A stretch of 64,000 bases of DNA, taken from an uncultured Spirochaetota bacterium (GTDB taxonomy: Bacteria > Spirochaetota > Spirochaetia > SZUA-6 > Fen-1364). Below are positions 35,246-61,825 of this stretch, one piece after another (position 1 is the stretch's first letter; every line of letters begins with the position of its first letter). The stretch is taken from NCBI GenBank assembly GCA_963734545.1, contig CAVTHO010000004.1, forward strand, positions 128,001 to 192,000, read 5' to 3'. The position numbers and the translations under genes are program-made. Below the pieces are notes generated by a model. The model was not told the origin of the DNA. It saw nothing but the letters and a program-made list of their open reading frames with translations, and searched no databases.

Positions 35246-36372
35246 TCACTCCCAGCGCTCTTCGAATGCGGGATCCTTCGCCTTCGCTTCCGCAATCTTC
35301 TGTTTCCACAAGCCTTTCAGTCCCTTGTTGTTCCACAGAAGATCAACGGTTTCGTACTCCTTGAGCGGAGAGGCTTTCTTCAGATCGATGTCCAGCAGAT
35401 AGATCTCGATCTTTCCTTGTTTCAGCACTTCGAAATACAGCCCCTCCTGTCCCAGGTAATAGGAGAAGGACAACGCGGGCATGTGATCCGATTCGTCCAT
35501 GCCGTGCCACACGGAGTAGAGCGCGTCTTCCTTCAGGTCGTAGATGAGAACATTCCATCGCGACGGATTCCTTGGGACAGTGATTATTGGGTCATTCATT
35601 ATCGACTGGTAGAGAACGAGGAACACGAAGTTCTGGTCTACAACCGACTGGAGAGTTTTCACCTCAGCGACTATTGGGAGGTACGCCCCAGTGAAGGGCA
35701 GGATGAAATCTGTCAAGACCGACTTGTCGGACCTCGAGTAAACCCGGAGCTCCGTGTCACGCATAGCCCCCATGTAGGGCAACTTTGACTCTGTCGGTTG
35801 AAAACGCGATAACAAGATCAGATTTGCACCAGCATCAAGATCCTTGGGGTTCAGAGATGTAATAGACGTCCGGGTCTCTGCCTTCAGCTGAATACACCCA
35901 GCTTCGCTCCGTATCAATTCGCATGATCCCGTCATTGTGACTACGCAGATTCCTGTAGAAGCCAAATACCTTTTCTCGACGATATGTCCTGAAGTCCGTG
36001 ACCCTATCTGTCTTAACCGCCTTTGTCTTCTTGTCGTAGCGAAAAACCTCATACGAAGGTTCCTTGTTTCCACCACTCCCATAGTAGGGGTAGAAGTACA
36101 ACGACGACTCATCATCATTGGTGAGGCGTGGAAAGGAGTATCCTTGAATGTCCTCAAACCGGAAAGGACCCCTGTCGCTCAGCGGAATCGTCGTGATAGG
36201 CTTCGCCACAACCGCCTGCGCGAACAGCGTCTTTGGCATGTGAACGTCCGTGCGACCCTTTGAACACCTCTTCATACAGCGAACTCAGGTTGCCTCCCTG
36301 CGCGTTCGCCAACAGAATCGGGAGCATCAACAAGAACAGCACGATGATGGGCTGAGTTCTCCTGTTTGCCAT
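35246..36372 (-). CDS. Secreted hypothetical protein, candidate immunity protein (two frameshifts, ~36260 and ~35850)
   Basis: GGGGAG RBS 9 bp after the giant gene's stop region; signal peptide MANRRTQPIIVLFLLMLPILLANA-Q; fragments 36154-36372, 35835-36275 and 35246-~35850 are collinear, about 375 aa in total. Confidence 0.7.
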
Positions 36373-36381
36373 TTGACTCCC

Positions 36382-39300
36382 CTATCGGCCACCAAGCAGT
36401 GATGTGTCCCACCAAGGCTTGATCCGACCGAAGTTGGTGCCGCCACCGTTGAACTGATTCCGCCACCCGCTGAAATACCTGTTGTCCAAAAGCCAGTTGG
36501 AGTAACTGTCATTCAGCACGGAGGCGCTTTGCCAATTCCCGAGACTATTCGCTCTTGGCCCCGCTTCGTAGAGTGTTCCGTCAACTTCTTTCTGCGGTGC
36601 ACTGTGGATCAGGAGGTTCTGACCTTGGTCGTCGACCCCATAGAATCCGATGTGCATGTTTCCAGGAGGGCCGAGGAATACCAGGTCCCCAACCTGCGGA
36701 GCCGCCACCGGGTCAATCCGCGTGTCGTAGGACGTCAGGTACACCCCGCTGGCCTGCTTTGCTCTCACTCGCTCTGCCCACGACTCAGGCAATCCATAGT
36801 CGAAGTCGGCAAGCAAGGCGTTCTGCATGGAGCCCGTTTCTCCTTTGAGCCTTGCTGCAAGCGCGTTGCTGTAATCCTTCGATGAGCTGTCGAGCGCCCG
36901 CTTGTTGATCATTCCGCGGTATGACTGCCCTTCCTCCAGGGCACCGGCGGCATATGCCACAAGGTCAACGTACCCCACGCAGTCCAGCGAGGGAACACTC
37001 CCGTTGGTATCCTTCCAGCGATATAGTTCTGCATTAGGTGCTTGTCCTTCTTGAGGGAACCATCCGGTCACCGCCTTGCCGTACCCACGTTCGACAGTGT
37101 TCGAGTTCGCCCAATATGAGGCACCCGGTGTCTTGCCCTCCTCCGATCCACTTCTATCGTAGTTGATATTCAGGTACTCGCCCGTGTAAGTCAGCGCCAC
37201 ATCATTAATCAGGTTCCCGAACGGATTGTCGTAGCGAGCACTTCCCTCACCGGAAGCGAGGTTCGCCAAGAACAGCGCGCCAGAAAGACCGTCGAATCCG
37301 TCGCTCCCCCGGAAAGCGTTTGTCGTGTACTGGAGCATATCGTGACTGTACATGCTGCCGGCGACCGAGTCCTTCGAGTCCTTCAATGCCTCCCTAAGCC
37401 CGTTCACCAAAGCGAAGGCGTCGCCGTAGTCCTTATTCGACAGAACACCCGAGGTAAACGTGCTTAACTTCTCGTTGCCTGCAAGAAGCGCGAACGACCC
37501 CTCACCATTCACCAGATAGCTCCACAACTTGTTGGATTCCTTGTTGATGCTCCCGATCGCTTGGTCGTTCTGCACTGCTGCCAGCTTCAATAGATCCATC
37601 TCCGCCGCGTGCTCGTATTGCCGTTGACCGACTGTCTTCCCTTCACTGGCGATCTGCGCTGACGCAATATAGCCGAACCCACCGGCCCCGAACTTCTGCA
37701 GCATCCCTGCGCTCCAGGCCATCCCGGTTTCCTCGTATCCCTTCCCTGTCACGCCGAATGCCTGCATCAGGTCCGCGTAGGCGCTGATGCCGCCCATCTT
37801 CGCCTCAAACTCCCCTTTCCCGCCAAGATGTACTCCCTCATGAGCGAACAATGACGCGACCTGCGCCGCCCCTTCGATGCCGCCTCCAAGAAGCTTCGCA
37901 TTTATGCCGATGCTGTTGCTGCCTTCGGCATATGCCAAAGCCTTCAAGTCCTGCTCGGTTATGCCTGCAGTAGAGGCATCATAGTAGCTGACATTCTTCT
38001 GCCCTGCCCAAATCGCCTTTGCAATCTCGTAGTTTCCGCTGTTTTGTGTGTACCCCATCATGTTGATCGCGTTCAGCGTCGAAATGCCCCGCTGGTCGCC
38101 GAACGCTGCACTCGCTTTCGCCCCTGTAATCTTCAGAGTATCCTTGAGCCCGCTCATGCTCGCCGCGCACTGGTTCCCAGGCTCACATTCGTCCCGTTGC
38201 TTCCGAAGTTCATCCCAAATCCGCGGCTACCTCCAAGGTGCATTTCCATCAGCCCGTAGCTCTTGCTGCCGCCGAAGTCGGCGAAGTTCATCACATTCAA
38301 CGTCGCCTCGTTAGTGATCCCATACTGGATCCCCGTCGAAGTCAGGCCACCGGCGAGGCTATTGAAGCTCTCGATGCTCTTTCTGTTGAATACTTTCCCG
38401 CTGAGGTCGACATCGTTTCCGTCGTAGAGGTTCCAGTTTCCAAGCCCAGTGTTTACCGCTGCACCGCCTGCAGCTCCCGCCACGCTCGCCCATGCTCCCG
38501 TTCCAAACGACCCCTGCATGAAGCTATTCGTGTCCCACCCCAGCTTGCCGTCAGTCCAGTTGAACGCGTTGATCGCGCTCGTTGCCGTGTTCGTCGTGAA
38601 CGTCTGCGCCCCCGCAAGCAGCGCTTTGCCCACTCGCCCCCTTGCCGAAGCTTCCCAGCGCTCCTGTCAGCCCTGTCTTTGCGAACCCCTCCCCGACGTT
38701 AAACCCGTTGAACACTCCCCCTATTGTACTGGTCACCGTAGCTGGTCAGGAAGCTCTTCCCGATATCTAGCCCCGCCTCTTCCCAGCTCTTGTACCCGTA
38801 GGCCACATCCAGCGCGTCAAAGAGCACCGTGCTCGATGTGCTGATCGCCGCAGCAGCAGCTATCCCCGCTATCCCCCCGATCCCTCCTGTAGCCACGGTG
38901 GCCACTATCCCCGCAGCTATCGTGCCCACACTCCTCAGGCTGGGCGCCTTGAACCAGCTTCCCGTGTCGTCCCACAGCGGCTTATCCCACCGAGGGGCCG
39001 CCATCTCCGTCCACCCGCGGCTCTCCCTCATCTCGTTCCAGATGAAGTCCCCCATCAGCCGCCCCAACTCCCCCTTGCCGCTGACGATGATGTTTCGCCT
39101 CTGCGACTTGTCGAAGTCAGGCTCATCCGTGAACTCGGGCGCGTACCCTATCCAGGCCCCAAACTCCCCTTCCCCCATCTCCTTGCTGATGTCCCGCTTC
39201 TCTGCCCTGAAGCTCACCACCAGCCCCTTGGCCTTCTTCTCCGCCTGGCTCAGCTCCTTGCCCTCTCCGAAGATCCTCTTCTGCGCTGAGCCCACCTCCT

Positions 39301-42300
39301 CCTGCGCCGCTCCCACCAGGTCCATCACTGCGCCCGCGTCCAGCCCGCTCAGTCGACTCTGGCTCAGGTCCACCTTCAACTGCAGCGCGGGCATCGCGTA
39401 CCACACGTACCCCCCGACGCGCAGATTCTCGCTCACGATGTCGAAGAACAAGCTCCGCATGATCGTCTCTCGCTCGTACACCCCTCCGCTCTTCGCGTAG
39501 CCCGCATCGCCAAAGGTGGTGTCCATGCTCGTCTCAAAGCCCTCGTTGGCCTGCTTCACGCTCTCCGCTAGCGCTTCCTTCGCATCCTCCACGCTCGCTC
39601 GGGCATCATCGGCCAGCCCTCGCGCTGCCAACGCCGACAGCTCGCTCCTGCTCTGCGCTACAAACCTCCTCGCCTCTGCCGCGATCCTCGCCCCCGAGGT
39701 GTCTACTGACAACCCCGCACGCGCCACCACCACTTCTCCTGACCCGATCCCTGCATTCATCCGCCTCAGCGCGCTCAGAGCCTCGGCGCTTCCCACCTCT
39801 CCCAGAAGCCCCTCCACAGCAACCGTGGCCTCTTTCGCGTCATAGCTCATCCCGCTCACCAGCAGCGTGCCCGCGTTCCGCGTGCTGTCCTCTGCGCTTG
39901 CTCCCACCTCAGACAGTATCGCCTCGTTGCCTGCCTGCGCCGCCTTCTCCCTCGTGGCCGCCACCCAGGCAAGCTTGCTCTCTCCCATGTTCAGGTAGGC
40001 CTGCCTCCACGCTTCACTCTTGTCCCCATACTCCTGCTGGAAGCCCTGCCTCCACTGCACAAGCGCCCGGCCCAGCTTCTCCTGGCTGCTCGCCCATGCG
40101 CTTGCTGCCTTGGCCCTCACCAGCCCCACCTGTGCGTACCACCCCTGCCGCCTGTCTCCAAGGTCCTGCACTGACTGGGCCCAGGACTGCTCGGACTCTG
40201 CGCCGCGCGCATCCAGGGCGCCCGCGTACGTGGAAAGCACTGACTGCGCGTACTTCTGCAGAGCCGCCATCCGGGCCTGGGTCTCCGCCGCGTTCAGGAG
40301 TACCCCGCCGGAGAATGAGGCCGCATCCAGCACATTGCTTGAAAGTTCGTGTTCCGCCCTGGCAACCCACTGGGCGTTCTTATAAGCCTGCGAGGCGGCT
40401 GACACAAACGCATCTTTGCCTTGCCGTGCCGGCAATGTACGCGTCGTAGGCGGCCCGATACTCCTGTTGGGCCGTTGCCACCCGGGTCCTCGCGCTGACC
40501 AGGGCGCTGCTGACCTTCTGCTCGGCAGCGGACGTGTCGAGGCCGGCAAACAGCGTCATCCTTGACAGGGCTTTGCTGAAGGAAGACTTGTCCTCAGGCT
40601 TCAGTTGTGCCCAACTTGCATCGAATTGGGCCAGGAGCTCCACGGGTATGTCGACCTTGTCCGCGGCAATTCCCTGACGCTCGCCGGCGACCTTCTTGTA
40701 CTGATCGATGAATGAGGTGAGAGAATCGAGAGATTCACCGTTGCTCCCCTGCAGCTCGGTGAGACGCGCCCAGGCAGCATTGTAGACCTTTGTCGGACTT
40801 ATCGTGTTCTGAACCTTGGCGCCATCATTCAGGCTTCTGAGGCTTGAGACCACGTTGCCTATCTCGTCCCTGATCCTTTCTGCGGCGTTTCTGTCGCTTC
40901 TACTGCCCATGATACCGGGCAAAGATGCCGTGATCTCTGGCAAGTCTCCTGTAGTGCTGATACCGCCTTTCAGCCAGGTCCCACATGCGGCTGAAAATTC
41001 TTTCAGATGTCCTTGACTCGAACTGGCTGGAGGTGTTGGTGCTCTTTCCTCCCGCCATCCGCATCGCAAAGTACAGCTCGAATGCTTCCTTTTCCTCAGC
41101 ATTCGCCATGACTGACTCGTAGCGCGCCTGATCGAGGGAAACAGCTTCGGCAATGTAGGCCTGCACGTCGCTGCTATGGTTTTCACCTGCTATCTCCAGA
41201 CGGAGCCACTTACCGGACGATCTGACGAAACTGTTGTTGCTGGCGTAGCCCGAGAGAAGGCCCCGTATGTCGGCGTCCACATTCGAATCGTATAGCCGTC
41301 TCTTCAGCCAATCCGCCGCGAAGCCCCACCTGTTGATGAGACTATCCATTCCGCCAGACTGCGCGGCAAGCTTTTCCACTGAAGCGACCCACGAGCTGAG
41401 CTTGAAGCTCGAAAGAGCTCCTCTCCGCTCCGTCCTGAAGCGCCTGCTCCTTCTGGAAAAAATCCCTGACTTCCTGGACAGATTCCTCGCTTCCCTGGGA
41501 CGTCAGAACAAACGAGTCATCGATGTCCAGCACGAGCTTTCCATTTCGCACCTTGAGGTAGCTCGACCATGAGCTGGCCCGGTCCGAGGCATCGAAATCT
41601 TTCAAGCCGCCAAGGGCTGCATCGCGGTCTAGAACTTCGCCGCGCGTTTTCTGGAGAGCTTCGTAGAGATCTTGAGCCTTCTTGGCCTGCGCCTCTGTGG
41701 CCAGCGCAAGATCACCGGTCACGCGCTCGAGCCGCATAAACGCGGTGTACTTCTGCTTCCATGCGTCGTACGCTGCCAGAGTGGCGGCGTCTTCAATCGG
41801 CCGTTCCGCTACAGCCTCTGCCCCGAAGAGCCCGGTCAGCGCGTCCTTTGCCGCAGTTGCGCGGACGAGCTGGTCAGCAGCTTCTTTCTGGCGCTCGGCA
41901 GGGCTCTGGTAGTCCGCGGCCACCTCACCGCTTGCTGCCAGATAGCCGCTTGCCGCCCAGTCCTGGATTTCCTCCCGTGCGCGCAGATCGAACCGGGCCT
42001 GTTCCAGGCTGTCGCTGGCGTCCTGCAGATCCGCCAGGAGCGCATTGATGATTGTCCAATGTCTTCGAACTCCGCCAGGGCAGTGTCCACGGCAGACTGC
42101 CCGGCCTGCACGTGCCCGCGGAGACCTTCCATGGCAGCCTGGAGAGATTCGAGCTGCGCCTGGCGTTCCTCGGCCCCGAGGTCCAGGAATGCAAGAGCCT
42201 GGCCCGAACGGCTGATGTCTTCCTTGAGACTGTCAATCCTTGCAAGGGCGGATCGAAAGCTCGCCTCGTCTGCGTCCAATGAAGAGACGGCGGCCGCAGG

Positions 42301-45300
42301 GAGGTCGCTCTCCTGAGCGGTGCCTGCAACGAGAGCAGAGAGGTAATCATGGAACCGGGCGACGGCCCCGGCATCACCGCTGTCAACTGAAAGCTGCGCG
42401 GTAAAGGCCTCTTCGGCGCGTGCAAGGCTGTTGAACGCCTCCAGAACCAGGTTGTCCTTTGAACCGGCAGCGCTTCGCGCGTAGATTGCCTCATCCCGAG
42501 TCTCAGCGCTGGCCGCGGTCGTGATTGTCACCCCCGGGCCCACATTCGAGTCACTCAAGTAGTCGCGCCAGGATGCGGGGGCATCCGTCTGGCCGGCGAC
42601 GTACGTCCAATAGGCTGCCTCTGCCCGATCCACCGCGACTTCATGAGAAAGAGACATCGCCTTTTCGGCTATCTCGCGCATGGACACGGACGCTGCCCCG
42701 TCCAGTGGAGCGGCTGCGACGGCCTTGTACCAATCGAGGTAGGTGTCCGTTGAAATGGCCGCAAAGAACGCGTCGTCCCACTGATCGATCGAGATGGCCC
42801 CGATGAGGCTGCACTTTGCTGCAGCATCGTCAGGATCGCCTCCTGCAACTCTTTCCGCATAGGCCTCGGGACTGCCGTCGAACGCCCCCAGATAGCCGCG
42901 AGCCTTCATCATGACGTCCTTGAACCCGCCTACCCTTGTCAGGCTCGCAGGGCTGGTTGAGAGAAAGCTCATGAGCTCGTCAGGGACCGGTAGCCCCTGG
43001 GAGAGCAGCATCTTGGCGCGATACTCTGCCGCAGAGGCGCCTGCTCCTGCGAACGCTTCTGCCTCCAGGTCGAAGCTCTTTCCCGCGTACGAGGACACAT
43101 CCCCTGCATGGCCCAGGCCTGCGCGATCGCGCAGGAATACGGCAAGTGCGCTCCGCTCGGAATCGTCCGCGCCTTGCGCCTGAGCGGCAAGGGTCAGGGC
43201 TATGGCGCGCTCGTACACAGCGCCTGGTTCACCCAGGCTTCTGACGGCGGCAAGGCGCGCATCGAAGGTGTCTCCCATGAGGACCCGTCTGAAGAGACTC
43301 TCCTTGTCCTCATATCCAGATGCGAGTCCCTCGCAAAGCGCAATGATTTCCTGCGGTGCCGGATGGTCTGCGTCGAAGCTCTCGAGGTACGTGCTCAGGG
43401 CTGCTTCCAGATCCTCCTGAGTGGACCAATTGTGAGCAGCCACCTCCTCCCAAAGTCTCATTGCTTCCGGCGCAATCGAGCTCGCGGAGATGCCCGAAAC
43501 GGTCTGCGCCACGCTCACCGTGTTCCACGTTCTATAAGCGGAGATGCGCTGGCCTTCCACTGAAGCTCCGTAATTGGTGGCAAGAAGCTCCGCGGCCCTG
43601 GCAGCTATGCTGTCTGCCAGGCTGGCAGGCATGCCCGCGGCAAGCCCGGCTGCTATCGTGCGCAGCGGCCTGCCGGGATCGGCAATGAATTGTTTTGCCG
43701 CTTCCGCGGCACCCGCGTTGACGATCAGATCCTTTGCGGCGTTCGTGAATGGCGATGACGCACCGGGCCGGGCATACAGCTCCACCAGTGAAGCGAACCT
43801 GTCCATGCCCTGCAGGCCCTGGGTAATGCGATCAAAGTCGGCCAGGGTAGCGGCAGCTTGTGAAGCGGACGCCTCCGCCGCCGCGGCCCTGTCTGCTGCC
43901 CCGGCCAGGGAGCCCCTGCGGACAGCATCAGCGGCAGCGTACCGGGAGAGAGCTTCGCAGTATTCGCTCACACGGTCCTCGAGCCAGCGGGGCCCGTCCG
44001 CTGTCGCGGCCCGCAGCGCGCCTCCCAGTTCGGCAACGAATCGACCAGCGGCCTGGCTATCCAGGATGGAAGCAGCCGCCGCCACGTCTTCTGCAGAAGA
44101 CAACGAAGCGTTCTCCGGCACGCGCAGTCCCCTGTCCGTGAATACTTTCTTCACCGCATCCAGGGATTCGGACTCTCTCTCCGCGATCAACGCCGTGCTG
44201 GTGCCTGCGGCATGGCTCCATGCCGCCTGAAGACGTCGGGCGCGCTCCGCCTCCCTGTACTGGGGCAAGCAGAACGCGAGGGTGAGGTCTCCTGCCTGGG
44301 TATCCACGAATGTGCCCGTGCCGCCTGCAAATGCCTGGATCCACGCGTCTGTGCTCGTCAGCGCGCGGAGTCGGGCCAAGCCCGTTGCGGTGTCCGCTGC
44401 GCTGTCCAGCGCACTGAGCAGCGCATCCAACGCACCTGCGCGATGGAGTGCTTCAGCCTGATCCAGACCCGGTTGCGCTGATTTTGCCAGCATGACAGCG
44501 TCCTGGTCGGAAGGGCTGCCATTCCCTGCCATCTCGAGCCAGGCCTGCAGTCCTCGTTTCTCAGCCCTTGCGCGCGCAGCTACCAGGGCCAGCGCAGCCG
44601 TGGGCATTGTCGGCAGACAATCGGTCCGCCAAGGATCCTTCGCTCCGCGTGCCTCCTGATTCGTTGTACCAGCTTTCCGCATCCGTGGCGCCGCTGGCCC
44701 GCACTTCAGCGAGCCGTTCCTGGTATGCGGCATCTGCCCGCACGTTGAGCAGGCCAAGGTAATTGAGAAGCTTCGCTCCCGCGGTTGCCTTTGCGTCCCC
44801 CACGGTTGCGTCGCGCCAGGCGGCAAAAAGGGCTGATACGGCCGCGTAGTCGGGCGCATCGATCGGCACGCCAAGCTCGTCAATGGATGAGGGAATCCGA
44901 TCCACGAAACCCGGCACCCGGATTCGCTCAGCCGCGCTCTTCAGGTCTGCAAGCGGGGCAACCCCGGACTCTGGATCGCCCTTGACCAGGACCGCGGCGC
45001 TCTGCCAGGCACCGTCGACTGCAAGATCAAAGCCGTGCAGCCTCGCTGCGGTGAAGTAGGCTGTGCTCGCTTCGGTGAGCCAGGTGTCGGATCCGGACAT
45101 CCCGCTCGCGTCCAGCAGGTCCTTGTACTTCTGCTCGATCTGCCCCTTATAGAAATCCACTGTCCCGCTCTGCGTAGAGACGAGCGCGTCCACATATTCC
45201 TGGCGAGCCTGCTCATAGTCGGCAGAGGCCTCGTCAGCGGCAGCCTGGGCCGCCTGAAGGGCCTGGCGCGCAGCGGCCAGTCCCGCGCCTCCATCCTGCA

Positions 45301-47436: not shown

Positions 47437-47506
47437 GTTGTCCTCTCCTCCACGATTTTTAATAAAGACATTGGAGAGTATACATCTTTTTGAAGAGTTG
47501 AAAAGG

Positions 47507-50503: not shown

Positions 50504-53500
50504 GGCGCCCCCTCCCGCGGAGATAGATGATGAACAGACGAGGCAGGACGAAAAGAGTGAGAATGGTGGATACGAACAGGCCGCCGATGATGGCCACGGC
50601 CATGCCGCTCTCTGCCGAGGTGTGCGACAGGTCGATTGCAATAGGCAGCAGGGAAAGCACGGTGATGAGCATGGTGATGAGGATGGGGCGCATCCTGTCT
50701 GAGGTGCCCTGGTAGACGGCAGCCACCATCGGGACTCCCGACTTTCTCCGGGCCGAGTAGGTTTCATAGAGGATGATGGAGTTGTTCACCGCGATGCCGA
50801 AAAGCACGATGATCCCCAGCGCGGAGTCGAAGCTGATCGGCTTGCCCGAAACGGCCAGCGCAAGGCTGATTCCTGAAAAGGACAGGGGAAGCGCGGTCAG
50901 GAGAAGGGCCGGAAGGAGGAATGACTCGAATTGCGCGCCCAGGACGAGGTACAGCAGGACGATGACCAGGGCAAAAGCGGCTAGCAGGGCGCTGATGTTC
51001 TCCGCAAGCACGGAACCCTCGACTGATCTCACCCACTCGAAACGCCTCTCGAGCCTGCCTATTTCTGCCGTCACGCCGTGGTCCAGCCCGGCCGCGGGCT
51101 CGACGGCCACAATGACCGCATCTGCCCTGTCCCGCCTGTAGAGTGCGGGCACGGAAGGCTCTGAGCGCATGCGGACCAGCTCGGACAGGCGCGCCTCGGA
51201 ACCGCCGGGCGTGCTCACGACGATTGCCGGGAGGTCCTCAGGTCGGGATGCCTGGCGGCGGTCCACGCGGACGCGCACGTCCAGGTCTCTTCCCTCGATG
51301 CTCATCCGTGACGGATAGCTTCCCGTGATCGCGTTTCGGACCGTCTCCGCAAGGTCCGCCAGGGAGAGACCCGCAACTGTCACGGCATCCCGATTCGGTA
51401 TGAGCCGCACTTCGGACCGCTCCCCCTCGGGCTGCAGATTGACCCGGGCAGACAGGTCCCCCGATGGACCGCCCGGCTTGAACCTGGCCGATATGGTGCG
51501 CGCCCTGGCCTGCGCCTCGGCTTGCGTGGACCCTTTCACGACCATGGCCCTGCCGCCCCTTCCCAATCCGAGAAGGGGTGTGATGATGGAACCGGGAAGG
51601 CTGACCTCCACGACCGCGGACTCGATGTGAAGAGAAGAGCGTATGGCGGACGCCACGGCTGCGGTGGACTGCATGCGTCCCCTGGCCAGGAGGACGCGCA
51701 CGTGGATGATCTCCCTGCGTTCTTCGGGGTCCGCGTAGTACTGGGCGTCCTCCGGCTCACCTCCTGCCCGTGCGTACACTCCCTGCACGCCGGGGACCGC
51801 GGCACACGCGCGCGCCGCATCCGTGGACACGGAGGCGGTGCGTTCCAGCTCCGCTCCATAGGGCATGGTGATGGTCACATCGATCTCGCCTGTGTCCTGG
51901 GCCGGCATGAAGTCGAATCCGAGCAGGGGCACGCAGAGCACGCCGAGAGCGGTCAGCAGGGCAACGGCGGTCACGATGGTCCAGGGTTTTCGCAGTGTCG
52001 ACATGAGGGACCGGCGGAACAGGTGATCCGACCATGCGCGAGCCCGCGGGGCCTTTCTTCGGGCAGCGCGCCGCTCCAGTAAAAGGAAGAGCACGGGCAT
52101 CAGGGTGATGGAGGTGAGGAAGGAGGCGATCTGCGCAAAGATCACGGACAGGGAAAGGTCGGTAAACAGCGGACCCAGCAAGCCCGGAAGAAAGATGATG
52201 GGCAGGAATACAACGGTCAAAGTCAGCGTGGAGCCCAGGCGTGAAGTGGCGAGCTCCAGCGTGTGACGCAGGACGCTGTCCGCGGTTGCCTTGCCGATGA
52301 CGTGCCGCTTCTGGAGATTTTCCAGGATGACAACGTTGTTGTCCACGATCATTCCGATAGCAAGGGCAAGACCGCCCAGGGACATGATGTTGACTGTCCT
52401 GCCGAACACCTGGAGGGCAAGAAGCGTCACGGTTATTGCGATGGGCAGGGACAGCATGAGCAGTGCCGAGGTCCGGAAGTCTCGAATGAACACGATCAGG
52501 ACAATGAACGCGATCAGGGAACCTGCGAGCGTGGACAGGGCCAGGTTGCGAAGAGAGGCGGCAATGAAGAGCGAGCCGTCCGAGACGATCAGGATGTCGA
52601 GGTCCTTCCCGTAGGAGGCGGCAAGCCGGGCAACCTCCTCCTTCAACCCGGCAGAAACCCTGATCGGGCTGGCGCCTTTTCTTTTCATGACGCTCAGCCC
52701 GACTGCCTCCGCGCCGTTGACCTGGAAGAACGAGAGCCTTTCCCGCTTGTCCAGGGAGATGGAGGCGATGTCGGAGAGCCGAAGTGCCGAACGTCCACCC
52801 ACGAACCGGAACTCACCAAGGGCGGCTGGGTCTGCGACCGTTCCTGAGGCTTTGACCAGGTATTCCAGGCCTCCTGCCGTGACCGTGCCCGTGGGGTAGT
52901 CATAGTTGTTCTTTGCCACCAGGGATGCCACGTCGTTCAGCGTCAGCCCTTTGGAGGCCATCTGGGACTGGTCCACGGAGACGACCACCTCCTCCACCGC
53001 CCCTCCTGCCAGCACCACGGAACCGACACCTTCCACCTGCTGCAGGCGTGTCTTGATCTCGCGCTCACCCAACCTGCGGGCAAATGCCAGGTCTCCTGAG
53101 CGCGGCCGGACCGCCACGATCGCAATGGGGCGCTCCCCTGCCTCGGCAGGGAGCACCTGGGGTTTGCCCGCATCCGACGGCAGGGAGGTATAGGCCACGT
53201 CGATGCCCTCACGCGTCCTCACCGAGGCGGATACCATGTCTTCTCCCCAGGAGAACTCCAACGTGATGATGGACAGGCTGTCACGCGACACGGAAGACAC
53301 GCGCTTCACGCCCTTGACTGATGCGAGCTGGTCCTCCAGTGGAATCGTGATGAGCGAGCGCACCTCTGAGGCAGGCAGACCGGGATAGCTTGTGGACACG
53401 GTGAGCTTGGGAATGGTGAGCTCGGGCAGGAGCTCCAGCCGCAGGTTCAGAGAGGCTGCCACGCCGAGAATCATGACGCCGGCAAATATCATGAGGGTTG

Positions 53501-53540
53501 CCGTGGGGCGCTTGAGGGCGGCTGCAATCAGTCCACGCAC
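50490..53540 (-). CDS. RND efflux permease subunit (AcrB/AcrD/AcrF family)
   Basis: YPGLPASEVRSLITIPLED, NIMSLGGLALAIGMIVDNNVVILEN, LGAQFESFLLP, GIAVNNSIIL, RMRPILIT, IIGGLFVSTILTLFVLP. Confidence 0.95.
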   Translation of the reverse strand: MRGLIAAALKRPTATLMIFAGVMILGVAASLNLRLELLPELTIPKLTVSTSYPGLPASEVRSLITIPLEDQLASVKGVKRVSSVSRDSLSIITLEFSWGEDMVSASVRTREGIDVAYTSLPSDAGKPQVLPAEAGERPIAIVAVRPRSGDLAFARRLGEREIKTRLQQVEGVGSVVLAGGAVEEVVVSVDQSQMASKGLTLNDVASLVAKNNYDYPTGTVTAGGLEYLVKASGTVADPAALGEFRFVGGRSALRLSDIASISLDKRERLSFFQVNGAEAVGLSVMKRKGASPIRVSAGLKEEVARLAASYGKDLDILIVSDGSLFIAASLRNLALSTLAGSLIAFIVLIVFIRDFRTSALLMLSLPIAITVTLLALQVFGRTVNIMSLGGLALAIGMIVDNNVVILENLQKRHVIGKATADSVLRHTLELATSRLGSTLTLTVVFLPIIFLPGLLGPLFTDLSLSVIFAQIASFLTSITLMPVLFLLLERRAARRKAPRARAWSDHLFRRSLMSTLRKPWTIVTAVALLTALGVLCVPLLGFDFMPAQDTGEIDVTITMPYGAELERTASVSTDAARACAAVPGVQGVYARAGGEPEDAQYYADPEERREIIHVRVLLARGRMQSTAAVASAIRSSLHIESAVVEVSLPGSIITPLLGLGRGGRAMVVKGSTQAEAQARARTISARFKPGGPSGDLSARVNLQPEGERSEVRLIPNRDAVTVAGLSLADLAETVRNAITGSYPSRMSIEGRDLDVRVRVDRRQASRPEDLPAIVVSTPGGSEARLSELVRMRSEPSVPALYRRDRADAVIVAVEPAAGLDHGVTAEIGRLERRFEWVRSVEGSVLAENISALLAAFALVIVLLYLVLGAQFESFLLPALLLTALPLSFSGISLALAVSGKPISFDSALGIIVLFGIAVNNSIILYETYSARRKSGVPMVAAVYQGTSDRMRPILITMLITVLSLLPIAIDLSHTSAESGMAVAIIGGLFVSTILTLFVLPRLFIIYLRGRGRRGDR

Positions 53541-53546
53541 GCGAGC

Positions 53547-55055
53547 CTACTTCAACAGGGGCAGGCTGAATGCTGCCGCTGCTTTGTTGCCGGCAGTGTC
53601 GGTGAGACTGTCCGACACGGCGATGGTGACAATACCGGAGTTGGTGGTGTTGGTGATGTTGACCGAGACCCTGACCGGGGTGAGTCCCGCGATGGCCACC
53701 GGCTGAGGATCAGCAAAAGAGGTCGTGGCCACTGCCACGGGTGTGATAAGCGCCGCGCCATTGGTCGCCGTCACGCTGAAGGAATGCATGATGGAAAAAG
53801 GATCAATGGCTGCCCCATTTGCCAGGCTCAGGTAGACGTCCAAGTAGGACATGTCGTCCCCAGTCGGCCCGAAGGCGGAGAGATTCAGGTTTCCGAATGC
53901 GTCCACGGCAGTGTACTGGCTATAGTCGCCAGGCGCGGGGCGGTCGGTGCGGAACCGAACCACCTCCACGCGGGGAGGTTTCGTAGTCGGCCCATCAGTC
54001 TGGATATTGTAAACAACATCTGAGGCGCTCGCGTTCCCGCTCGTGTCGAGGACCCCGCGCTTGATTGTCAGATTGTACATCGTTCCCCAGACGAAGCGCT
54101 CTTCAGGCACAAGGAAGAAATGGTCGCGCGGCGTGCCATCCGGATCTACCTGGAAGCTCCAGGCGGGCTGGAGCGTGATGAATGACTCCATGTTCTCGCG
54201 AGAGACCGGCTCCGAAAACTGGAGCTCGATCCCCCACGTGGCCTCGAACCCTGTGTTCTCCTGCAGGCCCGCAACGCCGGGGTCGTCAAAGGTCAGCCCT
54301 GTCCCCTGGGGCACGCCGTCCACTGTTGGACGAACCGCCATTAGCGTGGGCCGTACGTCTTCAGCACCGGCGGTGAAACGCCATCGAACAGTTTCGGGAA
54401 GCCTGTTGCCCGAAAGGTCCTTCACCGTGTCCGTGAGGACAACGCTGTACTCAGCGCCGGGTGTCCACGGGGAAAGCGGCGTGAAGCTGGCCGTGGCCCC
54501 GGTCACGTCAAAGGTGACTGTTCCCCCCGGGTCAGGGGACACGGAAAAGGCCGCAATGAATGAAGTCCGGTCAACGGGCTCTGAGAAGCGCACCACGATC
54601 GGCAGCAGGGGATCCGCCACCCTGCTTCCGTCAGCGGGCTGAGTGGGTTGGAGAACCGTCGGCCTGCCCGCCTCGGTCTTTGTTGTGAACGCAAACCGGA
54701 AATCCTTGGCAAGAGAGTTGCCGTCTCTGGTCTCCACGGTGGAAACAACCGCAATCTCGTAGTCATTCCCAGGGGAAACGGGACGAACGGGCATGAAGAC
54801 GAGTCGGCTGCCTTGCCATGCATAGCTGCCGGTCATGGGTGCTCCGTTTTCCGAAAGTGAGAACGCCTGCTCGGCTTTCACAGGGTCGGCAGCGGAGGAA
54901 AACTCCACCCATACGCTGCTCACCGCTGAAGCGGCAATCCGTGCATCGTGGGGATGCCAGTCCGTGATCTCCAGCGGCTGCATGCCCAGGATCAGCGAAC
55001 AGGAGCAGACGCACAGAGCAGCGGCCAGCACAGCGGAAGTCAGCCGGCCGGTCAT
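53547..55055 (-). CDS. Lipoprotein with Ig-like (Big_5/SbsA-type) domains
   Basis: Lipobox LCVCS-C; repeated P.DG..V..FSEPV..F.P..Y.V..VKDLSGN pattern; ATGA overlap with the upstream stop. Confidence 0.85.
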   Translation of the reverse strand: MTGRLTSAVLAAALCVCSCSLILGMQPLEITDWHPHDARIAASAVSSVWVEFSSAADPVKAEQAFSLSENGAPMTGSYAWQGSRLVFMPVRPVSPGNDYEIAVVSTVETRDGNSLAKDFRFAFTTKTEAGRPTVLQPTQPADGSRVADPLLPIVVRFSEPVDRTSFIAAFSVSPDPGGTVTFDVTGATASFTPLSPWTPGAEYSVVLTDTVKDLSGNRLPETVRWRFTAGAEDVRPTLMAVRPTVDGVPQGTGLTFDDPGVAGLQENTGFEATWGIELQFSEPVSRENMESFITLQPAWSFQVDPDGTPRDHFFLVPEERFVWGTMYNLTIKRGVLDTSGNASASDVVYNIQTDGPTTKPPRVEVVRFRTDRPAPGDYSQYTAVDAFGNLNLSAFGPTGDDMSYLDVYLSLANGAAIDPFSIMHSFSVTATNGAALITPVAVATTSFADPQPVAIAGLTPVRVSVNITNTTNSGIVTIAVSDSLTDTAGNKAAAAFSLPLLK

Positions 55056-56477
55056 GGGCTTGCGTAGAAGTACAGCCATACATCTTCCTTCAGGAACGAG
55101 CCTGATCCATTGTCCGAGGCGGCCGCGCCGCCCGGGAGTGTAAGCTTGTAGTACCTCCCGATGTCCGGTGTGCTCTTCGCGAGCCCACCGTAGATGAGGG
55201 ACACCATCTGCCCTTCAGGGGTCCACAGGACTGAAACCAGGGAAGGGTCGGACAATGATGAAGGAAAGAACCCGTCCAGCAGGATTGCCGCGACAAGGTT
55301 TGCGCGGCTCTCCGCGGGGAAGAGCTCGGCGAACTCGATCACGAGCTTCAGCGTTCCCGTCACGTCGATCGAAACAGGTTTTGCATCAGGCGTGTTGAAA
55401 ACAGTCCACGTATCTTCCGTTGCCGCATACACGGCCTTGATGGACTGGACCGTCTGCAGGGGGATGTCGGGCGTAAAGCTCCGCTCGTACGCAAGGCCCA
55501 TCTTGTTGCCGGATAGGTCCGCTGCCGTCTCCGCAATTCGAAGGGTGTAACGCTGATCCATAATGAAGCGCGCCTCGGGAATCAGTGCATAGACCCCTGG
55601 GCTGACCCGCAGCAGGGTACCCTTTATCGTGGGTGTCGATGTGAGCGCGGAAGACAGCGAATCCATTCGAATGTCCTCAGAGAAGGTGAAGAGAAGAAGG
55701 TCATCGGCGCCTGTATGATCAAGGTCGTTCCCCGTCGGGCCGAGAGTGGTGCGGATGCCGGGCGCAATCGAGATCATCGTCGGCGCGGTGGAGTCTTCCT
55801 GGACCCTGTACCTTCCTCCGTACTCGATCCCCATCGGAGTGCCATCCGGCGCGGCCATGTCCTTGCCGACTTTCCAGGTATACGCGGCAAGGTTTGTCCA
55901 CGCGTCGCTGGGCACAATCGTGACCACCCGGCCGGTGACGTCCCACGTGACGATGGTCTCCGTGGAGGGCTGAAGGTCGAACTCCCGGGCAAAGCTGTTC
56001 GCGTCAATAGGCGCTGAAAAGGTCAGGACCAGCGGCCGGTCGATGGCCGCGGTTCCGCCGTCTGATGGATCCGAAGAGAGCAGCGAAGGCCCCGGGCCTG
56101 GATGCCCCACGTAGAACGGGACCTCTTCGTCCGCGTCGAACGCCCTTCCGTTGGCAAGCGTGACCCGGCCGCGGTAGGCAAGCACGTAGCGCACGCCCGG
56201 CCGAAGGCCGGGAACCGGGCTCAAAGTACAGGCGGTTGCCGTCCCATCGGAAATCGCCTGAAACCTGCCCGTCCGGAGAGGACAGTGTGAGGAGGCGCTG
56301 GACGGACGGTCGGTCGGGTGAATCGGGAAACTCCACCCATGGCGACGCGGCAGCGGTGAGAATGGCATCCCGCTCGCTCGGCCAGACGGTCACGGCGAGC
56401 TTCTCAAAGGAGATGATTGCGCAGCCGCACAGCAGGAGCGCCAGGCCCGCCGCGATGCTAGTTCGATATCTCCACAT
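55052..56477 (-). CDS. Lipoprotein with Ig-like (Big_5/SbsA-type) domains (frameshift ~56215)
   Basis: Lipobox LLLCG-C in ORF 56004-56477 continuing into 55052-56368: SDPSDGG..LTFSAPID, FTFSEDI..AADLSGN. Confidence 0.8.
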
Positions 56478-57805
56478 TCATTCCCTCCCGAAGGGTTGGA
56501 GGAGGCGATTCGATGAGGAGGTCCCCCTTTGCGAGCCCCTTCTCAACGGAGAACGATCCGCCCACGTCCCTTCCGAGCGTCACCTGCTTGATAAATGCCT
56601 TGCCATTGACCACGCTGAAGACCTGGGCCGTGGCGCCCTTTTTCTGGAAGATGCACTTCTCAGGAACCACGAGCGACAATTTCGGCTTCTCATAGGCGAT
56701 CGTGGCCCGGACAAACATGCCGGGACGCAGCTTCCCTGCAGGGTTGGAGAGGGATGCCTTGACCAGGAATGCCCCGGTCTGAGGGTCCGCGGTCGGTGAG
56801 ATGGAGTCCACCCTGCCCGCGAGCGGTTGAGAGGAAAGGGACTCCACGGACAGGGCGGCCGGCATTCCCTCCCTCAGCAGAGGCATCTCCGACTCCTGGA
56901 TAGAGAGCGCGGCATAGACATTCTTGGTGTCCATGAGCGTGAGCAGCTTGCCGTTCTGCGCAACGTACTCGCCCTGCTCCACGTACTTGGCCCCGACAAT
57001 CCCCGGCGCCGGTGCGTCGATTGCAAGCGCCTTGAGAAGCTCCTCCGAGGCCTCCAGCTCGCGGCGCGCGGACTCGTAGCGTGCCCGGGCCGCCTCCACC
57101 TCGGCATGAAGGGTCTTTGTATTGAGCCGCACGAGCTGACGGGTCCGGGCCGCGGCATCCGCGGCAGGAACAAGTCCGTCCCGCTGGAGATCCTCATCCC
57201 GCAATCCTATGCGGCGCGAGATCAGGTCTTTCTCTATCATCGCGTATTCATTTCGGGCCGCCAGGAGCCTCAGGCGGACGGCCGCCAGCGCCTCTGCCGT
57301 GACGCCGCCGACCTTGGAGAGCTCCTCCTTGTTGGCAACGGTCTGGGCCGCGTCCTCGACCTCAAGGCGCTTCTGCTCCCGCTCGAGCTCCGTCCTCTGC
57401 ACCGCCACCAGGCGCGCCTCCACGGCGAGCTCGCCTTCCCATAGCTTGGCCTGCGCCAGATCAAGGGAGGAGCGCGCCGAATCGATGCCGCTCAGCGCCT
57501 GCTGGCGGCGGAGCTCGAGCTGGACGTTTTTCAGGGTCAGGAGATTCTGACCCTCCCGTACGGACTGGCCTTCCTTGACGAAAAGCCGCGCAACCGTGCC
57601 GTCCACCGTGGCGGAGAGATCGATCTTCCTCAGGAAGGTGATGGTCCCGAAGCAGGAGATCTCCCGGGGAACGGACTCCTCTTTGACGACCACGGTAGTA
57701 ACTGGCACACGCTCTTCCAGCGGCTCCGCAGGTTTCTGTCTGGCGCAGGAGGCCAGCTCCCACACCACGACCAGCACGAGGGCTGCCCGGGCAACACTGC
57801 TTCAT
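56458..57805 (-). CDS. RND periplasmic adaptor (membrane fusion protein), lipoprotein (frameshift just after the start)
   Basis: DGTVARLFVKEGQSVREGQ lipoyl half, long coiled hairpin, IDAPAPGIV, LRPGMFVRA, VTLG; removing one base gives MKRVARAALVLVVVWELAS-C. Confidence 0.9.
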
Positions 57806-59206
57806 TTCAAGGCGCCCCTTTCTTGTTCAATAATCAGACGCAGGCCTCCCGGACGGCACGCCGAGGAGCGTCTCCCAGTCCCGCTCGTTGTCCCGCAGGC
57901 GCAGGAGGGACTCGTTCAGCGCGATCTCGGCATTCGCCGTCTCGATGGCGCCCTGGAGATAGTCGATCCGCTTGACCTCGCCGAGATCCATCTGCCTCTG
58001 GAGAATGGTCTCCTTGCGGCGCTGCACGTCCAGTTTCCTGCGCGCAAGCTCTATTGCCCGTCCGGCCTGAGAGTAGGCTGCCATCATACGCTTGACCTGG
58101 AACCGCAGGTCCTGGACGATCTGCTCTTTCTTCCGGGCCTCCGCGTCCAGGGCAAGGCCGGCCGTCTTTCTGTCCACCCACGCGGTGATGCTCTCCAGGG
58201 GAGACGTCTTCACGGACATGCTGCCGCCCCTGTCTTTGCCGGGAGTGGTCGAAGCCCCTGCCGAATAAGTGGTGGGTGACTCAGGCACTGGAAAGGAGAA
58301 TGTAAGCTTCCCTGAGTACTGGGGATTGCTGAGGGGAAAGGCCTCACCGGTGAACGCGGCGGTCAACTCAAGGTCCACGTCCGGAATGAATGGGAACGAG
58401 GCAATACGCACTTGCAGGGAAGCTTTCTGCACGGCCACGTTCTGACGCTTGAGGTCGGGGCTGTAGCTTGCCGCCATCGAATACAGGAGCCCTTCCAGAC
58501 CGGAGAGATCGGCCGCCGTGTATTCCTGATCCACGCCTCCCGACAGCTCGAGGCCATCGCCAGGATCGAGGGAGAGGAGCTTCTTCATCTGGTAGCGGGA
58601 ATCCTCCAGGGACGTTTCTGTCTCCGAAAGCGTGATCTCCAGGGAGAGCAGCTCGAGCTCCGCCTGGGCATGGTCCAGCTCGAGAGCGCCGCCCAGCCGG
58701 ACCTGGGTCTGGAGAATCTCGATGTTCTGGTGGGCAAGGGCGATGGTCCGACGGAGTATCTCTCTCTTCTGTTCCGCCACGAGTATCCCGGCAAACAGCC
58801 GCCTGAGGTCGTATTCCAGGGCGCGGTACTTCTGCTCCAGGTCCTCCCTGTCCATGTTAAGATTCAAGCGGGCAACGCTCCGCTCGAATGGCTTGGTGCC
58901 CCCGCGGAGCAGCGGTTGCGTGGCGCTCACTGAAATGGTCTTGCCGCGCGTATCCGGCGCTCCCGTGGTGATTGTCGTGTTCTCGTCATAGCCGATCGAA
59001 AGACGGGGGAAGTACTCGCGGATTCCCAGGGTGAAGGTGAGCTCCTGGGCGGAAAGCAGCGCGCTCTGGTACGCCAGATCCCGCGACGACGCGATTGCCC
59101 TTTCCACCGCCTGGTCCTCCGTGTAGGGCTCTGCGCAGAGAGGTTGACCGAGGGTCGTCAAAATCCAGGCGGCGGTGATAAGCGCGAGCGAGGGGCGGGA
59201 GCCCAC
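57802..59206 (-). CDS. TolC family outer membrane channel protein
   Basis: Signal peptide, EDQAVERAIASSRDL, FPRLSIG, SATQPLLRG, GALELDHAQAELE, GEVKRIDYLQ. As written it stops at 57827; a one-base correction gives an ATGA overlap at 57802. Confidence 0.88.
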
Positions 59207-59216
59207 TGAGGTGCGG

Positions 59217-59721
59217 TTATTTGCCGCGCCCGGCGGCGAAGGCCTTGGCTGCCTCTTTGAGACAGTCACCGAGTATCCGCTTGAGGATCCATGGCGATGA
59301 GATGCTGTCCGAGGACTCGCTTGTGTGGACAACGGTCAGGGCCGGCTGCGCCGCGTCCAGCGAAGGGTACATTTCTATGGAAACCATGATCGCGTATTGA
59401 GGCGTGAAGTCCCGGATTGTCTCCCGCTCCACTATATGGACACGCAGCGGCCAGCCATCTCCGGCGGCAGCCGTGGTGACCGCGAACCCGCTCCCGGGAG
59501 CGAGCACGGGAAGAAGGGCCTCAACGTCTCGGGCCACTTCATGTGAAAGGACTCTCCGGTCCACGTCCACCTTGTCCACGAACACGCCGGCGGGCGCAGG
59601 GCCCGGGTCCGCCCTTGGCCGGGTACGCCACCGTGTCCCTTCGGGGGAACAGTGCGCATGAGGCAATCAGGGTGGTTGCGCACACCACGCACAATGCCGC
59701 GAAGAAAAGCCTGCACTTCAT
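59217..59721 (-). CDS. Hypothetical lipoprotein (frameshift ~59600-59640)
   Basis: Lipobox TLIAS-C in ORF 59539-59721, continuing in ORF 59217-59666; ATGA overlap with the upstream gene. Confidence 0.7.
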
Positions 59722-60377: not shown

Positions 60378-60400
60378 CGACGGTTTACTCCTCCCGCGCC

Positions 60401-61825
60401 TCAATTCGACAGGATGTATTCCAGCCTTTCCCTGGTCCGGCCCGCGGAGGTATTTTTCTTGTCAATGAAGTAAGGCCGATGTCTTGCGTCCTTTGCAAAT
60501 GCACGGAGAATTCCAACGGCAATCAGGGTGGTCCTGTTGTCCTTGAGCTCCAGGGTGGCAAGAAGCGGATCCAGGAGGGTCGACTCGCCTGTCGCCGCGG
60601 CTTTCTCCGCTGCAGCGGAGAGCTCAGCCCGGGTCATGAGTCGTGCGCCGTCGGCTGGAGACAAGCCCAGGACCCCAGCAAGCTCCTTCCGGTAAGTCCC
60701 TGCCGCCTCGACATGCGGGGCAAGGTTGATTGCCGTTTCCAGGACATCCGCCAGCTTGTCTGAGCTCTGGTTGGGGAGGCCGCTGAGCCCAAGGTAAAGG
60801 CGATGGAAGTACGGCGGCAGGCTGCGCAGGTGGGGCAGCAGGGCGGCGTAGGCATCAATGTCCGCGGGGGCAGCGCGTTTCGATTCGATGCGCGCCGAGA
60901 GCAGCAGATACTTCTCGAAAGTCCCCGTGCCGTTGCGTTGTTCCAGGAGCCGGGCTGCGGTGCTCCAGTCCTGCCGCGCGAAAGCGGTGACGGCCTCCAG
61001 CGCAGACTTGCCTTTGCCCGCGGGGTTGAACGCCTTGTCATCCAGCTTTCGACCAAGAGCAAGAAGGTTGTTCTGTATGTCTTTTACCTTTGCGGCCCCG
61101 TACGCGCCGCCGTATTCAGCTTCCTTATAGGCGGTGAGCACGGCGGAATCGAAATCCCCCAGGCGCTCGTATGCCGCTGACTGCATGAGCCCGAGCCCCG
61201 GCTCGTAGGGGTACGCTGACTCGTATGAGTCGAGCACGGCGACCAGGTCGGAGTATCTGCCTGCCGACTCCAGCACCCTCGCGTAGGCGCGGTAATCTTC
61301 CATTGACATGGACGCCTTTGCCTTGCCCCATGCCGCATCCAAATACTCAAGCGCCTCCTTCTGCTTGTCTTCCGCAAGTAGAGCCCGGCCCGTAATGAAG
61401 CCGAATGGGGCAGCAGCATCGGTTTTCACGGACAGCGCCTTTCTCCCGTACTCCACTGCCTTCGGGTATTCCCCCCGGGAATAGGAAACGATAGCAAGGC
61501 CGCCGTACAGTGTTGCCCTGTCCGACGTTTTCATGCGGTTTCCTGCCAGGGCATATGCCCGCTGCAGATATGGCGCGGCAGAGCCCGGGTCTCCCTTCTG
61601 TAGACAGAGCATTCCGATCTCGTGCTTGAGCTGAAAGCGATCAGGGAACTCCTGATCGATTCGGACAAGGTCGGCGATGAGCTTGTCTATTCCGTTGGAG
61701 CGGTTGATTGCCGCATACGCTTTTTTGAATGCGGCATCGCCGGCGCAGGAGGACATCAAGGCAGCTATGGCGCAAACGAGGAAAAGGGTGATAGTTGGCC
61801 CTGCGGTATGCTTTAAGACCGACAT
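60401..61825 (-). CDS. Tetratricopeptide repeat lipoprotein
   Basis: Lipobox ALMSS-C; TPR patterns GLAIVSYSRGEYPKAVEYGRKAL, AYERLGDFDSA. Confidence 0.85.
   Translation of the reverse strand: MSVLKHTAGPTITLFLVCAIAALMSSCAGDAAFKKAYAAINRSNGIDKLIADLVRIDQEFPDRFQLKHEIGMLCLQKGDPGSAAPYLQRAYALAGNRMKTSDRATLYGGLAIVSYSRGEYPKAVEYGRKALSVKTDAAAPFGFITGRALLAEDKQKEALEYLDAAWGKAKASMSMEDYRAYARVLESAGRYSDLVAVLDSYESAYPYEPGLGLMQSAAYERLGDFDSAVLTAYKEAEYGGAYGAAKVKDIQNNLLALGRKLDDKAFNPAGKGKSALEAVTAFARQDWSTAARLLEQRNGTGTFEKYLLLSARIESKRAAPADIDAYAALLPHLRSLPPYFHRLYLGLSGLPNQSSDKLADVLETAINLAPHVEAAGTYRKELAGVLGLSPADGARLMTRAELSAAAEKAAATGESTLLDPLLATLELKDNRTTLIAVGILRAFAKDARHRPYFIDKKNTSAGRTRERLEYILSN

Follow-up and report, generated by a model that had tools for sequence, protein, structure and literature searches.

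A giant protein family with polymorphic-toxin behaviour, linked to a two-permease RND cluster across Spirochaetota, suggests a candidate toxin export route

Analysis of a 64,000-nucleotide stretch of DNA from an uncultured Spirochaetota bacterium (contig CAVTHO010000004.1 of assembly GCA_963734545.1; the whole stretch is referred to here as the window) identified a gene for a giant Sec-exported protein that lies directly behind a cluster encoding two resistance-nodulation-division (RND) permeases. Neighbourhood surveys of related genomes point to a strong genetic coupling of the giant gene with this cluster. The side-by-side occurrence of a giant toxin and an unusual two-permease pump in many spirochaete families suggests a new export route for protein toxins. 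We give an even chance to the interpretation that the locus belongs to a system of two parts spread across Spirochaetota, in which a polymorphic toxin/immunity pair is combined with a dedicated envelope machine, and the local copy of this system has probably decayed. As predicted from sequence, the first part would consist of a giant with a Sec signal, a helical N-terminal domain, a body of about 3,000 aa and an exchangeable tip, together with a periplasmic immunity protein encoded downstream. The second part comprises two paralogous RND permeases (RND1 and RND2), a membrane-fusion protein (MFP) lipoprotein that serves as periplasmic adaptor, a TolC-like duct, two Big_5 immunoglobulin (Ig)-like lipoproteins (Ig1 and Ig2) and tetratricopeptide repeat (TPR) lipoproteins (TPR1 and TPR2).

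Coupling of the giant gene to the RND cluster

The giant family was surveyed by searching the 559-aa N-terminal piece of the window protein in 41 close genomes and in 401 Spirochaetota genomes. Relatives were found in 11 of the close genomes, in 70 of the 401 phylum genomes and in 39 of 153 genera, and nearly all matches lay inside open frames of 2,000–4,500 aa. The source names of the homologues were Treponema sp., Spirochaetia bacterium and several Leptospira species. Among five closer relatives, the cluster of TPR, TolC, MFP, Ig, RND1 and RND2 genes was adjacent to the giant gene in three, being syntenic as a whole in genome G002 and transcribed divergently from the giant gene in G031, a member of another family, and in G017; it was not found in the fetched flanks of the giant in G019 and G024. 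Across the phylum, cluster genes were located within 20 kb upstream of the giant in 21 of 30 genomes (12 coded families), and in these linked genomes the adaptor and an Ig lipoprotein were present along with, mostly, both RND genes. The order and orientation of linked clusters varied, with co-directional and divergent arrangements and with Ig genes placed before or after those for TolC and MFP.

For the remaining nine giants the cluster was not located downstream either. Eight of these nine genomes were examined and all hold a complete cluster elsewhere, and in the ninth (G190) a second giant copy lies beside an Ig gene on another contig. None of the 162 open reading frames (ORFs) of at least 300 aa around 11 operons without an adjacent giant gave a match to the giant family. 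Two further arrangements were observed in the course of this survey. At locus L023 of genome G328 (11673-19996) the giant gene comes straight after Ig2, without RND genes in between, and a second Ig2 homologue is found on contig C26. ORFs of about 1,200 aa that show no match to the giant family occur near giant-less clusters at L107/L106 (G233; 9203-12826) and at L109 (G416; 30622-34344).

The Ig2 gene was used as a marker of the cluster in the 401 phylum genomes and was detected in 125 of them, comprising 66 of the 70 giant-positive genomes in comparison to 59 of the 331 others. Ten genomes with the marker only were inspected, of which three had a previously undetected giant ORF beside the cluster and three had none; the other four could not be judged owing to a contig end or masked bases. 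A profile of a conserved block, termed A1, detected no giant in five genomes that had the operon only, a blank that says little because the block is not conserved in more distant lineages. Co-occurrence of the RND operon with the giant across the phylum, put forward for testing in an earlier note on this DNA, is borne out by adjacency in 21 of 30 and three of five genomes and by the marker counts, with the qualification that linkage is not absolute.

The two permeases were placed in a FastTree phylogeny that comprised 65 sequences and had E. coli CusA as its root. Within this tree, whose reference sampling was small, all 60 cluster permeases grouped together (support 99) and apart from E. coli AcrB, MdtB and MdtC; whether they form a clade of their own had been named as a test in the earlier note. 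Another RND pump of the window's own genome, on contig C8, was placed with the AcrB/MdtB/MdtC clade outside the cluster-permease clade. The latter resolved into two sister subclades of 30 sequences, RND1 and RND2, with one of each per genome. MdtB, ZneA and CmeB were the best solved relatives of RND1, and RND2 was more divergent, with a best PDB match of 1.4e-42. Both scored below the RND_permease_2 cut-off of 1250 bits (482 bits for RND1 and 312 bits for RND2) and below all other NCBIfam RND cut-offs too.

Proton-relay residues were compared in AcrB numbering over the 30 RND1 and 30 RND2 sequences. D407 was kept in 30/30 and 28/30 respectively, D408 was kept in 1/30 and 2/30, and K940 was replaced by N in 26/30 and 28/30; R971 and T978 were kept. 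Because the cluster permeases form their own clade, divide into two subclades and carry these changed residues, they represent a separate RND pair that arose by an ancient duplication and whose proton relay is altered. By analogy with MdtBC, RND1 and RND2 likely assemble as a heteromer.

Alternatively, the arrangement could be inherited synteny with no functional meaning, the pump being an ordinary drug or metal efflux system. Gene order is common to related genomes by descent, and the solved relatives of RND1 named above would fit such a pump. We consider this highly improbable, as adjacency survives rearranged order and orientation between families, the marker is concentrated in giant-positive genomes (66/70 vs 59/331), and the permeases stand in a clade apart from the sampled drug pumps with a changed proton relay.

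The giant protein family and its variable tips

A signal peptide or anchor was seen at the N-terminus of all 31 giant homologues listed. Modelling of the N-terminal 520 aa returned long helices only (predicted local distance difference test, pLDDT, 76.5), and no PDB relative of this domain was found by sequence or by fold (Foldseek, none at E<=0.001). PDB profile searches with the N-terminal domain and the conserved body block gave noise only (E>=0.037), and a protein atlas search with the body block gave nothing at >=0.9 and a weak DUF637 lead at 0.82. Pfam and NCBIfam scans of the window pieces and the intact G002 giant assigned no family except at the C-terminal end. A relationship to the TIGR04388 (Lepto_longest) family of Leptospira had been raised in the earlier note and was not supported, since nine window pieces had no match at E<=0.01, the G002 giant had none at E<=0.1, and none of five genomes searched, including three Leptospira-like and one Treponema-like, exceeded the 45-bit cut-off. 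The likeness is one of very long spirochaete proteins, and in both G280 and G252 a sub-threshold match (E ~1e-5, 21-22 bits) was located within the giant ORF. We regard the N-terminal domain of the giant as a candidate trafficking domain.

All-against-all alignment of 31 giants showed that the C-terminus is not constant across the family; bodies that are almost identical end in different tails, and every tail type is paired with a matching downstream gene. In the pairs G384/G423, G280/G235 and G077/G257, bodies were 81-88% identical over ~2,640-4,000 aa and ended in tails of 207-335 aa that could not be aligned. The converse was observed for G225/G384, which had tails 62% identical on bodies just 28% identical, and the distant pairs G225/G342, G350/G211 and G356/G211 could be aligned to the very end. 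The last 614 aa of the window protein had no match in G002, whose body is 50-77% identical, and the last window piece was unmatched in the relatives' loci except for a short stretch in G315. In all 30 complete loci (29 relatives and the window), the giant stop was followed within ~0-75 nt by the start of an ORF of 72-415 aa whose product has a signal peptide or lipobox. Matching downstream ORFs accompanied 11 of the 18 tail pairs aligned at E<=1e-3, and at least two tail/partner families could be distinguished.

Pfam scans of the last 450 aa of 28 relatives identified Peptidase_M23 in two, PT-HINT in three, a weak NlpC/P60 match in one and a weak DUF4329 match (E 0.023) in one. M23 tips were recorded in G002 (2.2e-13), G157 and G233. 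The PT-HINT domain (PF07591, 1.5e-26 to 6.8e-19) was found in the Leptospira-like genomes G227, G077 and G257, just before the variable last ~200 aa, and was absent from the last window piece in the Pfam scan. Leptospira members are already known in annotation as polymorphic toxins, their NCBI name being 'polymorphic toxin-type HINT domain-containing protein'. A complex prediction for the M23 tail of G002 with its downstream leucine-rich repeat lipoprotein returned a score of 0.01.

The terminal enzymatic domain proposed for the window giant was recovered in part, as a weak NlpC/P60 match (E 0.0025) accompanied by conservation of a Cys/His/His pattern, which is seen in 13 aligned sequences as DCxGYVN, GHIGxYG and IHSAP. 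Just 19 relatives of this tip were found among 1.84 billion representatives, several of them at the C-terminus of proteins of 3,100-3,650 aa. The window tip is predicted to be a peptidoglycan peptidase or amidase of NlpC/P60 type, and the recognisable tips of the family are peptidoglycan hydrolases, namely M23 and the NlpC/P60-like tip of the window. Separately, an HExxH motif (AHEGVH) was observed at aa 129 of the last window piece, between the conserved body and the tip, and also in G315 (L070). It may mark a releasing metallopeptidase in the sub-type formed by the window and G315; the motif was rejected as a general releasing peptidase of the family, as it occurs in 2/32 sequences.

On sequence evidence, the giant and its downstream gene behave as a polymorphic toxin/immunity pair, with toxicity and neutralisation predicted. 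The giant could alternatively be a structural or wall-remodelling protein of the periplasm or surface, with the hydrolase end acting on the producer's own peptidoglycan and the downstream gene encoding a regulator. The recognisable tips, M23 and NlpC/P60, do belong to housekeeping hydrolase types, and the N-terminal domain forms a long helical rod that resembles structural repeats. This explanation is very unlikely in our view, given that tails are swapped between bodies 81-88% identical and are common to distant lineages along with the downstream gene, that the Leptospira members contain a pre-toxin HINT domain, and that the family is patchy (70/401 genomes) and not universal.

Organization and decay of the locus in the window

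The features of the locus are collected in Table 1. As the earlier note had described, eleven tightly packed co-directional genes occupy the minus strand, and the assignment of TPR, TolC, MFP, Ig-like and AcrB-type genes was confirmed in each case by a Pfam match. Of the overlaps that had been noted, one of 4 nt between TPR1 and TPR2 follows from the coordinates. Lipobox motifs were visible in the translations of TPR1, TPR2, Ig1, Ig2 and MFP. Homologues of TPR1 are present in the clusters of Treponema-like and own-order genomes, and counterparts of TPR2 occur in the clusters of distant families as well. The ORF at 59217-59666, described previously as a third lipoprotein, has neither a signal peptide nor a lipobox in its frame and has no Pfam or NCBIfam match; among the closer relatives' loci, an 86% identical counterpart was found in G002 only.

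The TolC-like factor remained under the NCBIfam TolC cut-offs (45.9 bits vs 225), and the adaptor passed the TIGR01730 RND_mfp model (195.6 bits vs a cut-off of 94.9). As a side observation, an adaptor segment of about 165 residues (roughly aa 83-250) has the appearance of a coiled-coil hairpin, a length that seems long for an RND adaptor. The signal/lipobox piece of Ig1 lies in a different frame from its Big_5 piece, and the gene is intact in G002 (473 aa). The true start of RND2 is probably near 50440. The gap that separates RND2 from the giant gene was confirmed; it has no terminator-like site and a single promoter-like match that was not above chance. The candidate immunity gene, which begins 10 nt past the giant's stop, has no Pfam family; the small secreted protein reported at this position was verified as a signal-peptide piece directly downstream of the giant, its frame being split. 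Base composition of the plus strand at 38001-40000 showed strongly negative skews, of -0.31 for GC and -0.20 for AT, at the same place as the best-conserved giant block.

Table 1. Features of the analysed locus, in window coordinates
Feature	Position	Strand	Evidence
TPR lipoprotein 1, 474 aa	60401..61825	-	Pfam TPR_14/TPR_12; lipobox-like LMSSC
TPR lipoprotein 2, 228 aa	59718..60404	-	Pfam TPR_19 9.3e-12; LASC lipobox
Small ORF, 149 aa	59217..59666	-	Overlaps upstream end of TolC ORF
TolC-like outer-membrane factor	57827..59332	-	Pfam OEP 2.4e-33
Membrane-fusion (periplasmic adaptor) lipoprotein	56458..57777	-	HlyD_D23 1.1e-30
Ig-like lipoprotein 1	55052..56477	-	Big_5 8.4e-16; two frames, 56004-56477 and 55052-56368
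Ig-like lipoprotein 2	53547..55079	-	Big_5 5.6e-37
RND permease 1	50490..53540	-	ACR_tran 1.6e-180, full length
RND permease 2	47507..50767	-	ACR_tran 1.2e-116
Gap from RND2 to giant gene, 70 nt	47437..47506	-	Giant Met at 47436, RND2 end at 47507
Giant: signal peptide and all-helical N-terminal domain (candidate trafficking domain)	45877..47436	-	
In-frame TAG within giant gene	45874..45876	-	Alignment to G002 protein crosses TAG in one frame
Giant body, at least 9 frame-shifted pieces	38163..45873	-	tblastn of G002 giant; no Pfam/NCBIfam family
Last giant piece, variable tail with HExxH (aa 129)	36382..38226	-	NlpC/P60-like tip at 36385-37239
Candidate immunity gene, frameshifted	35246..36372	-	Signal-peptide piece from 36372; 303-aa piece at 35246-36157

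The giant had been described as one gene of 11 kb, which is not the case in this assembly, as the region changes frame 10 times and contains an in-frame TAG. Breaks were counted by tblastn of the intact 3,636-aa G002 homologue against the window, and the alignment passed through successive frames 1,2,3,1,3,1,2,3,1,2 at 50-77% identity. Together, the giant and the downstream gene contain at least 11 breaks in 12.3 kb, in comparison to three apparent breaks in ~37 kb of control genes from the same assembly (rpoB, rpoC, three uvrA, two other RND genes and the 14.3-kb operon). In this control set rpoB and the three uvrA paralogues were intact, rpoC was in two frames, one of the other RND genes was split and the second was intact, and the 14.3-kb operon had one break. 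The rpoC match lies outside the window, on contig C9 of the same genome (G000; 92395-96472), over two open frames of 1,478 aa and 357 aa. Single in-frame TAG codons were also observed in two giant genes of one genus (G225:C67 and G438:C61), in each case inside the N-terminal match.

These local breaks could be errors in the assembly of a long-read metagenome genome, with the system intact in the organism, an explanation to which we assign a substantial minority share of the probability. Genes expected to be intact are also broken, and the split of rpoC over two frames points to indel errors of the assembly that reach into essential genes. At two break sites, near 40.9 kb and 42.05 kb, contigs of two other metagenomes differ by a one-base indel of a frame-restoring kind, so intact versions of the gene exist in nature. 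Mixed strains at a polymorphic locus might also spoil a consensus. Among sequencing runs that hold this DNA, no RNA run was listed, and three DNA runs held small shares (0.05-0.06), with contigs that gave patchy cover of the stretch. Assembly error is made less likely by the break density (~11 in 12.3 kb vs 3 in ~37 kb), by an equal density of homopolymers (19 runs/11.2 kb vs 24 runs/14.3 kb) with no long homopolymers at the break sites, and by one break being a substitution-type TAG. We lean slightly towards decay of the local copy, with a real pseudogene favoured over a poor consensus.

A candidate export route and its comparison with known systems

A model that joins the two parts can be proposed as follows. 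The giant would reach the periplasm via Sec, where its conserved N-terminal domain may be recognised by the TPR and Ig lipoproteins together with the adaptor. The proton-driven RND pair would then feed it into the TolC-like duct for display at the outer membrane or release. The tip would enter the periplasm of neighbouring bacteria and cleave the cell wall, and the immunity protein would shield the producer; in Leptospira, PT-HINT may free the tip by self-cleavage. We infer export or display of the toxin by the RND module from the gene linkage described above. The cluster would on this view be a hitherto unrecognised spirochaete protein secretion system, one in which a proton-driven RND heteromer, in place of the ABC ATPase of type I systems, takes a Sec-exported toxin of ~400 kDa from the periplasm by way of its family-specific helical N-terminal domain and threads it through, or mounts it on, a TolC-like duct, a proposal that we hold tentatively and place somewhat below an even chance.

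The principal alternative is an indirect service of the pump to the toxin system. The RND cluster would serve the toxin through export of small molecules or lipids, or through envelope remodelling, on which the action of the toxin, protection of the producer or regulation would depend, and the giant would leave the cell by another route, such as Sec followed by vesicles, lysis or an unrecognised outer-membrane step. All known AcrB-type substrates are small, the permeases are full-length 12-helix proteins of AcrB type whose adaptor scores above the RND_mfp cut-off, and operons without a neighbouring giant occur in eight genomes with a giant elsewhere and in three with none detected. On the other hand, conservation of the giant throughout the phylum lies in its N-terminal domain, as expected for a trafficking domain matched to one machine; the cluster has four to five extra lipoproteins that are absent from ordinary drug pumps; and the giant is placed directly after RND2 on the same strand in own-order and Treponema-like genomes. 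Indirect service is unlikely on balance, and is the alternative that we take most seriously.

Several observations weigh against toxin export by the RND pair, or against the two-part system as a whole. The tie between pump and giant is one of gene linkage, and RND pumps are, to our knowledge, known for small molecules and lipids and not for polypeptides of ~400 kDa. The absent relay lysine could mean that pumping by these permeases departs from the usual mode. No operon was found in the fetched flank of 11 of 35 giants (9/30 and 2/5), 59 marker-positive genomes had no giant N-terminal match, and 3 of 10 examined operons (G413, G204 and G044) had no detectable giant nearby. It is important to note that because the genomes are related, these counts overstate independence and are hence descriptive. 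With respect to the toxin, 21 of 28 relatives' tails had no Pfam match, the NlpC/P60 (PF00877) score of the window tip was 18.2 bits, below the Pfam cut-off of 23, and the model of this tip was poor (pLDDT 56), with LytE, MepS and SagA as best folds at E>=0.09 (Foldseek). Finally, with at least 11 breaks in its toxin and immunity genes, the local system may not function.

If the coupling reflects transport, the cluster would define a new class of secretion machine and its N-terminal partner domain a new trafficking domain for polymorphic toxins. We know of no protein secretion route that runs on an RND permease. Surface-export pathways of Leptospira and Treponema are poorly understood, and the system, if the proposal is true, would be the first defined interbacterial weapon of spirochaetes, including Leptospira and oral and gut Treponema. 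Cultivable genera are among the carriers of the cluster, which opens the hypothesis to direct testing. Should the pump turn out not to be the conduit, the association of a toxin family with a separate line of RND permeases throughout the phylum would still call for explanation. Literature searches found no publication in which an RND/TolC machine is coupled to the giant family or to polymorphic toxins of any kind, supplements not being covered, and none on TIGR04388 or Lepto_longest.

The giant family shares with known polymorphic toxin systems (PMC3482391) a conserved N-terminal part, an exchangeable tip and an adjacent co-varying immunity-type gene, and some of its members also have the pre-toxin HINT domain. 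It differs in that its N-terminal domain and body have no Pfam or NCBIfam match and thus correspond to no TPS, RHS, LXG, PAAR or TANFOR type. The first 300,000 of the 357,715 characters of that survey (Zhang et al. 2012, PMC3482391) do not mention TolC, RND, efflux or Leptospira. For the large protein LA_3725 of L. interrogans, a transmembrane segment at the N-terminus and a PT-HINT domain were reported in 2016 (PMC4751964), and judging from this published description it would belong to the giant family. Two-partner secretion and contact-dependent inhibition are a poor fit, as no TPS or FHA Pfam match was found in the window pieces or the G002 giant and no Omp85-type gene was found in the cluster. 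The TANFOR toxins of Bacteroidetes (PMC7073777) are similar in that they are large, Sec-exported proteins with a new N-terminal domain and an export route proposed from neighbourhood enrichment; they differ in N-terminal domain, in phylum and in proposed route, which is the type IX secretion system in comparison to an RND/TolC machine beside the toxin.

With regard to the machine, the cluster resembles the MdtABC-TolC and AcrAB-TolC pumps in its full-length AcrB-type permeases, RND-type adaptor and TolC-like factor, and MdtB/MdtC in particular in having two tandem paralogous permeases. The cluster differs from these pumps in that its permeases form a separate clade under the NCBIfam RND cut-offs, with Lys940 changed to Asn and Asp408 lost, in its four to five extra genes for TPR and Ig-like lipoproteins, and in its linkage to a giant secreted protein and not to a regulator. 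MacAB-TolC offers a precedent of another kind, as it exports the enterotoxin STII from the periplasm after Sec export. Type I secretion of giant adhesins and toxins similarly places a TolC-type duct and an adaptor beside a giant secreted protein; in the spirochaete cluster, however, there is no ABC transporter, the inner-membrane part is the RND pair, and the giant has an N-terminal Sec signal in place of the C-terminal signal of type I substrates.

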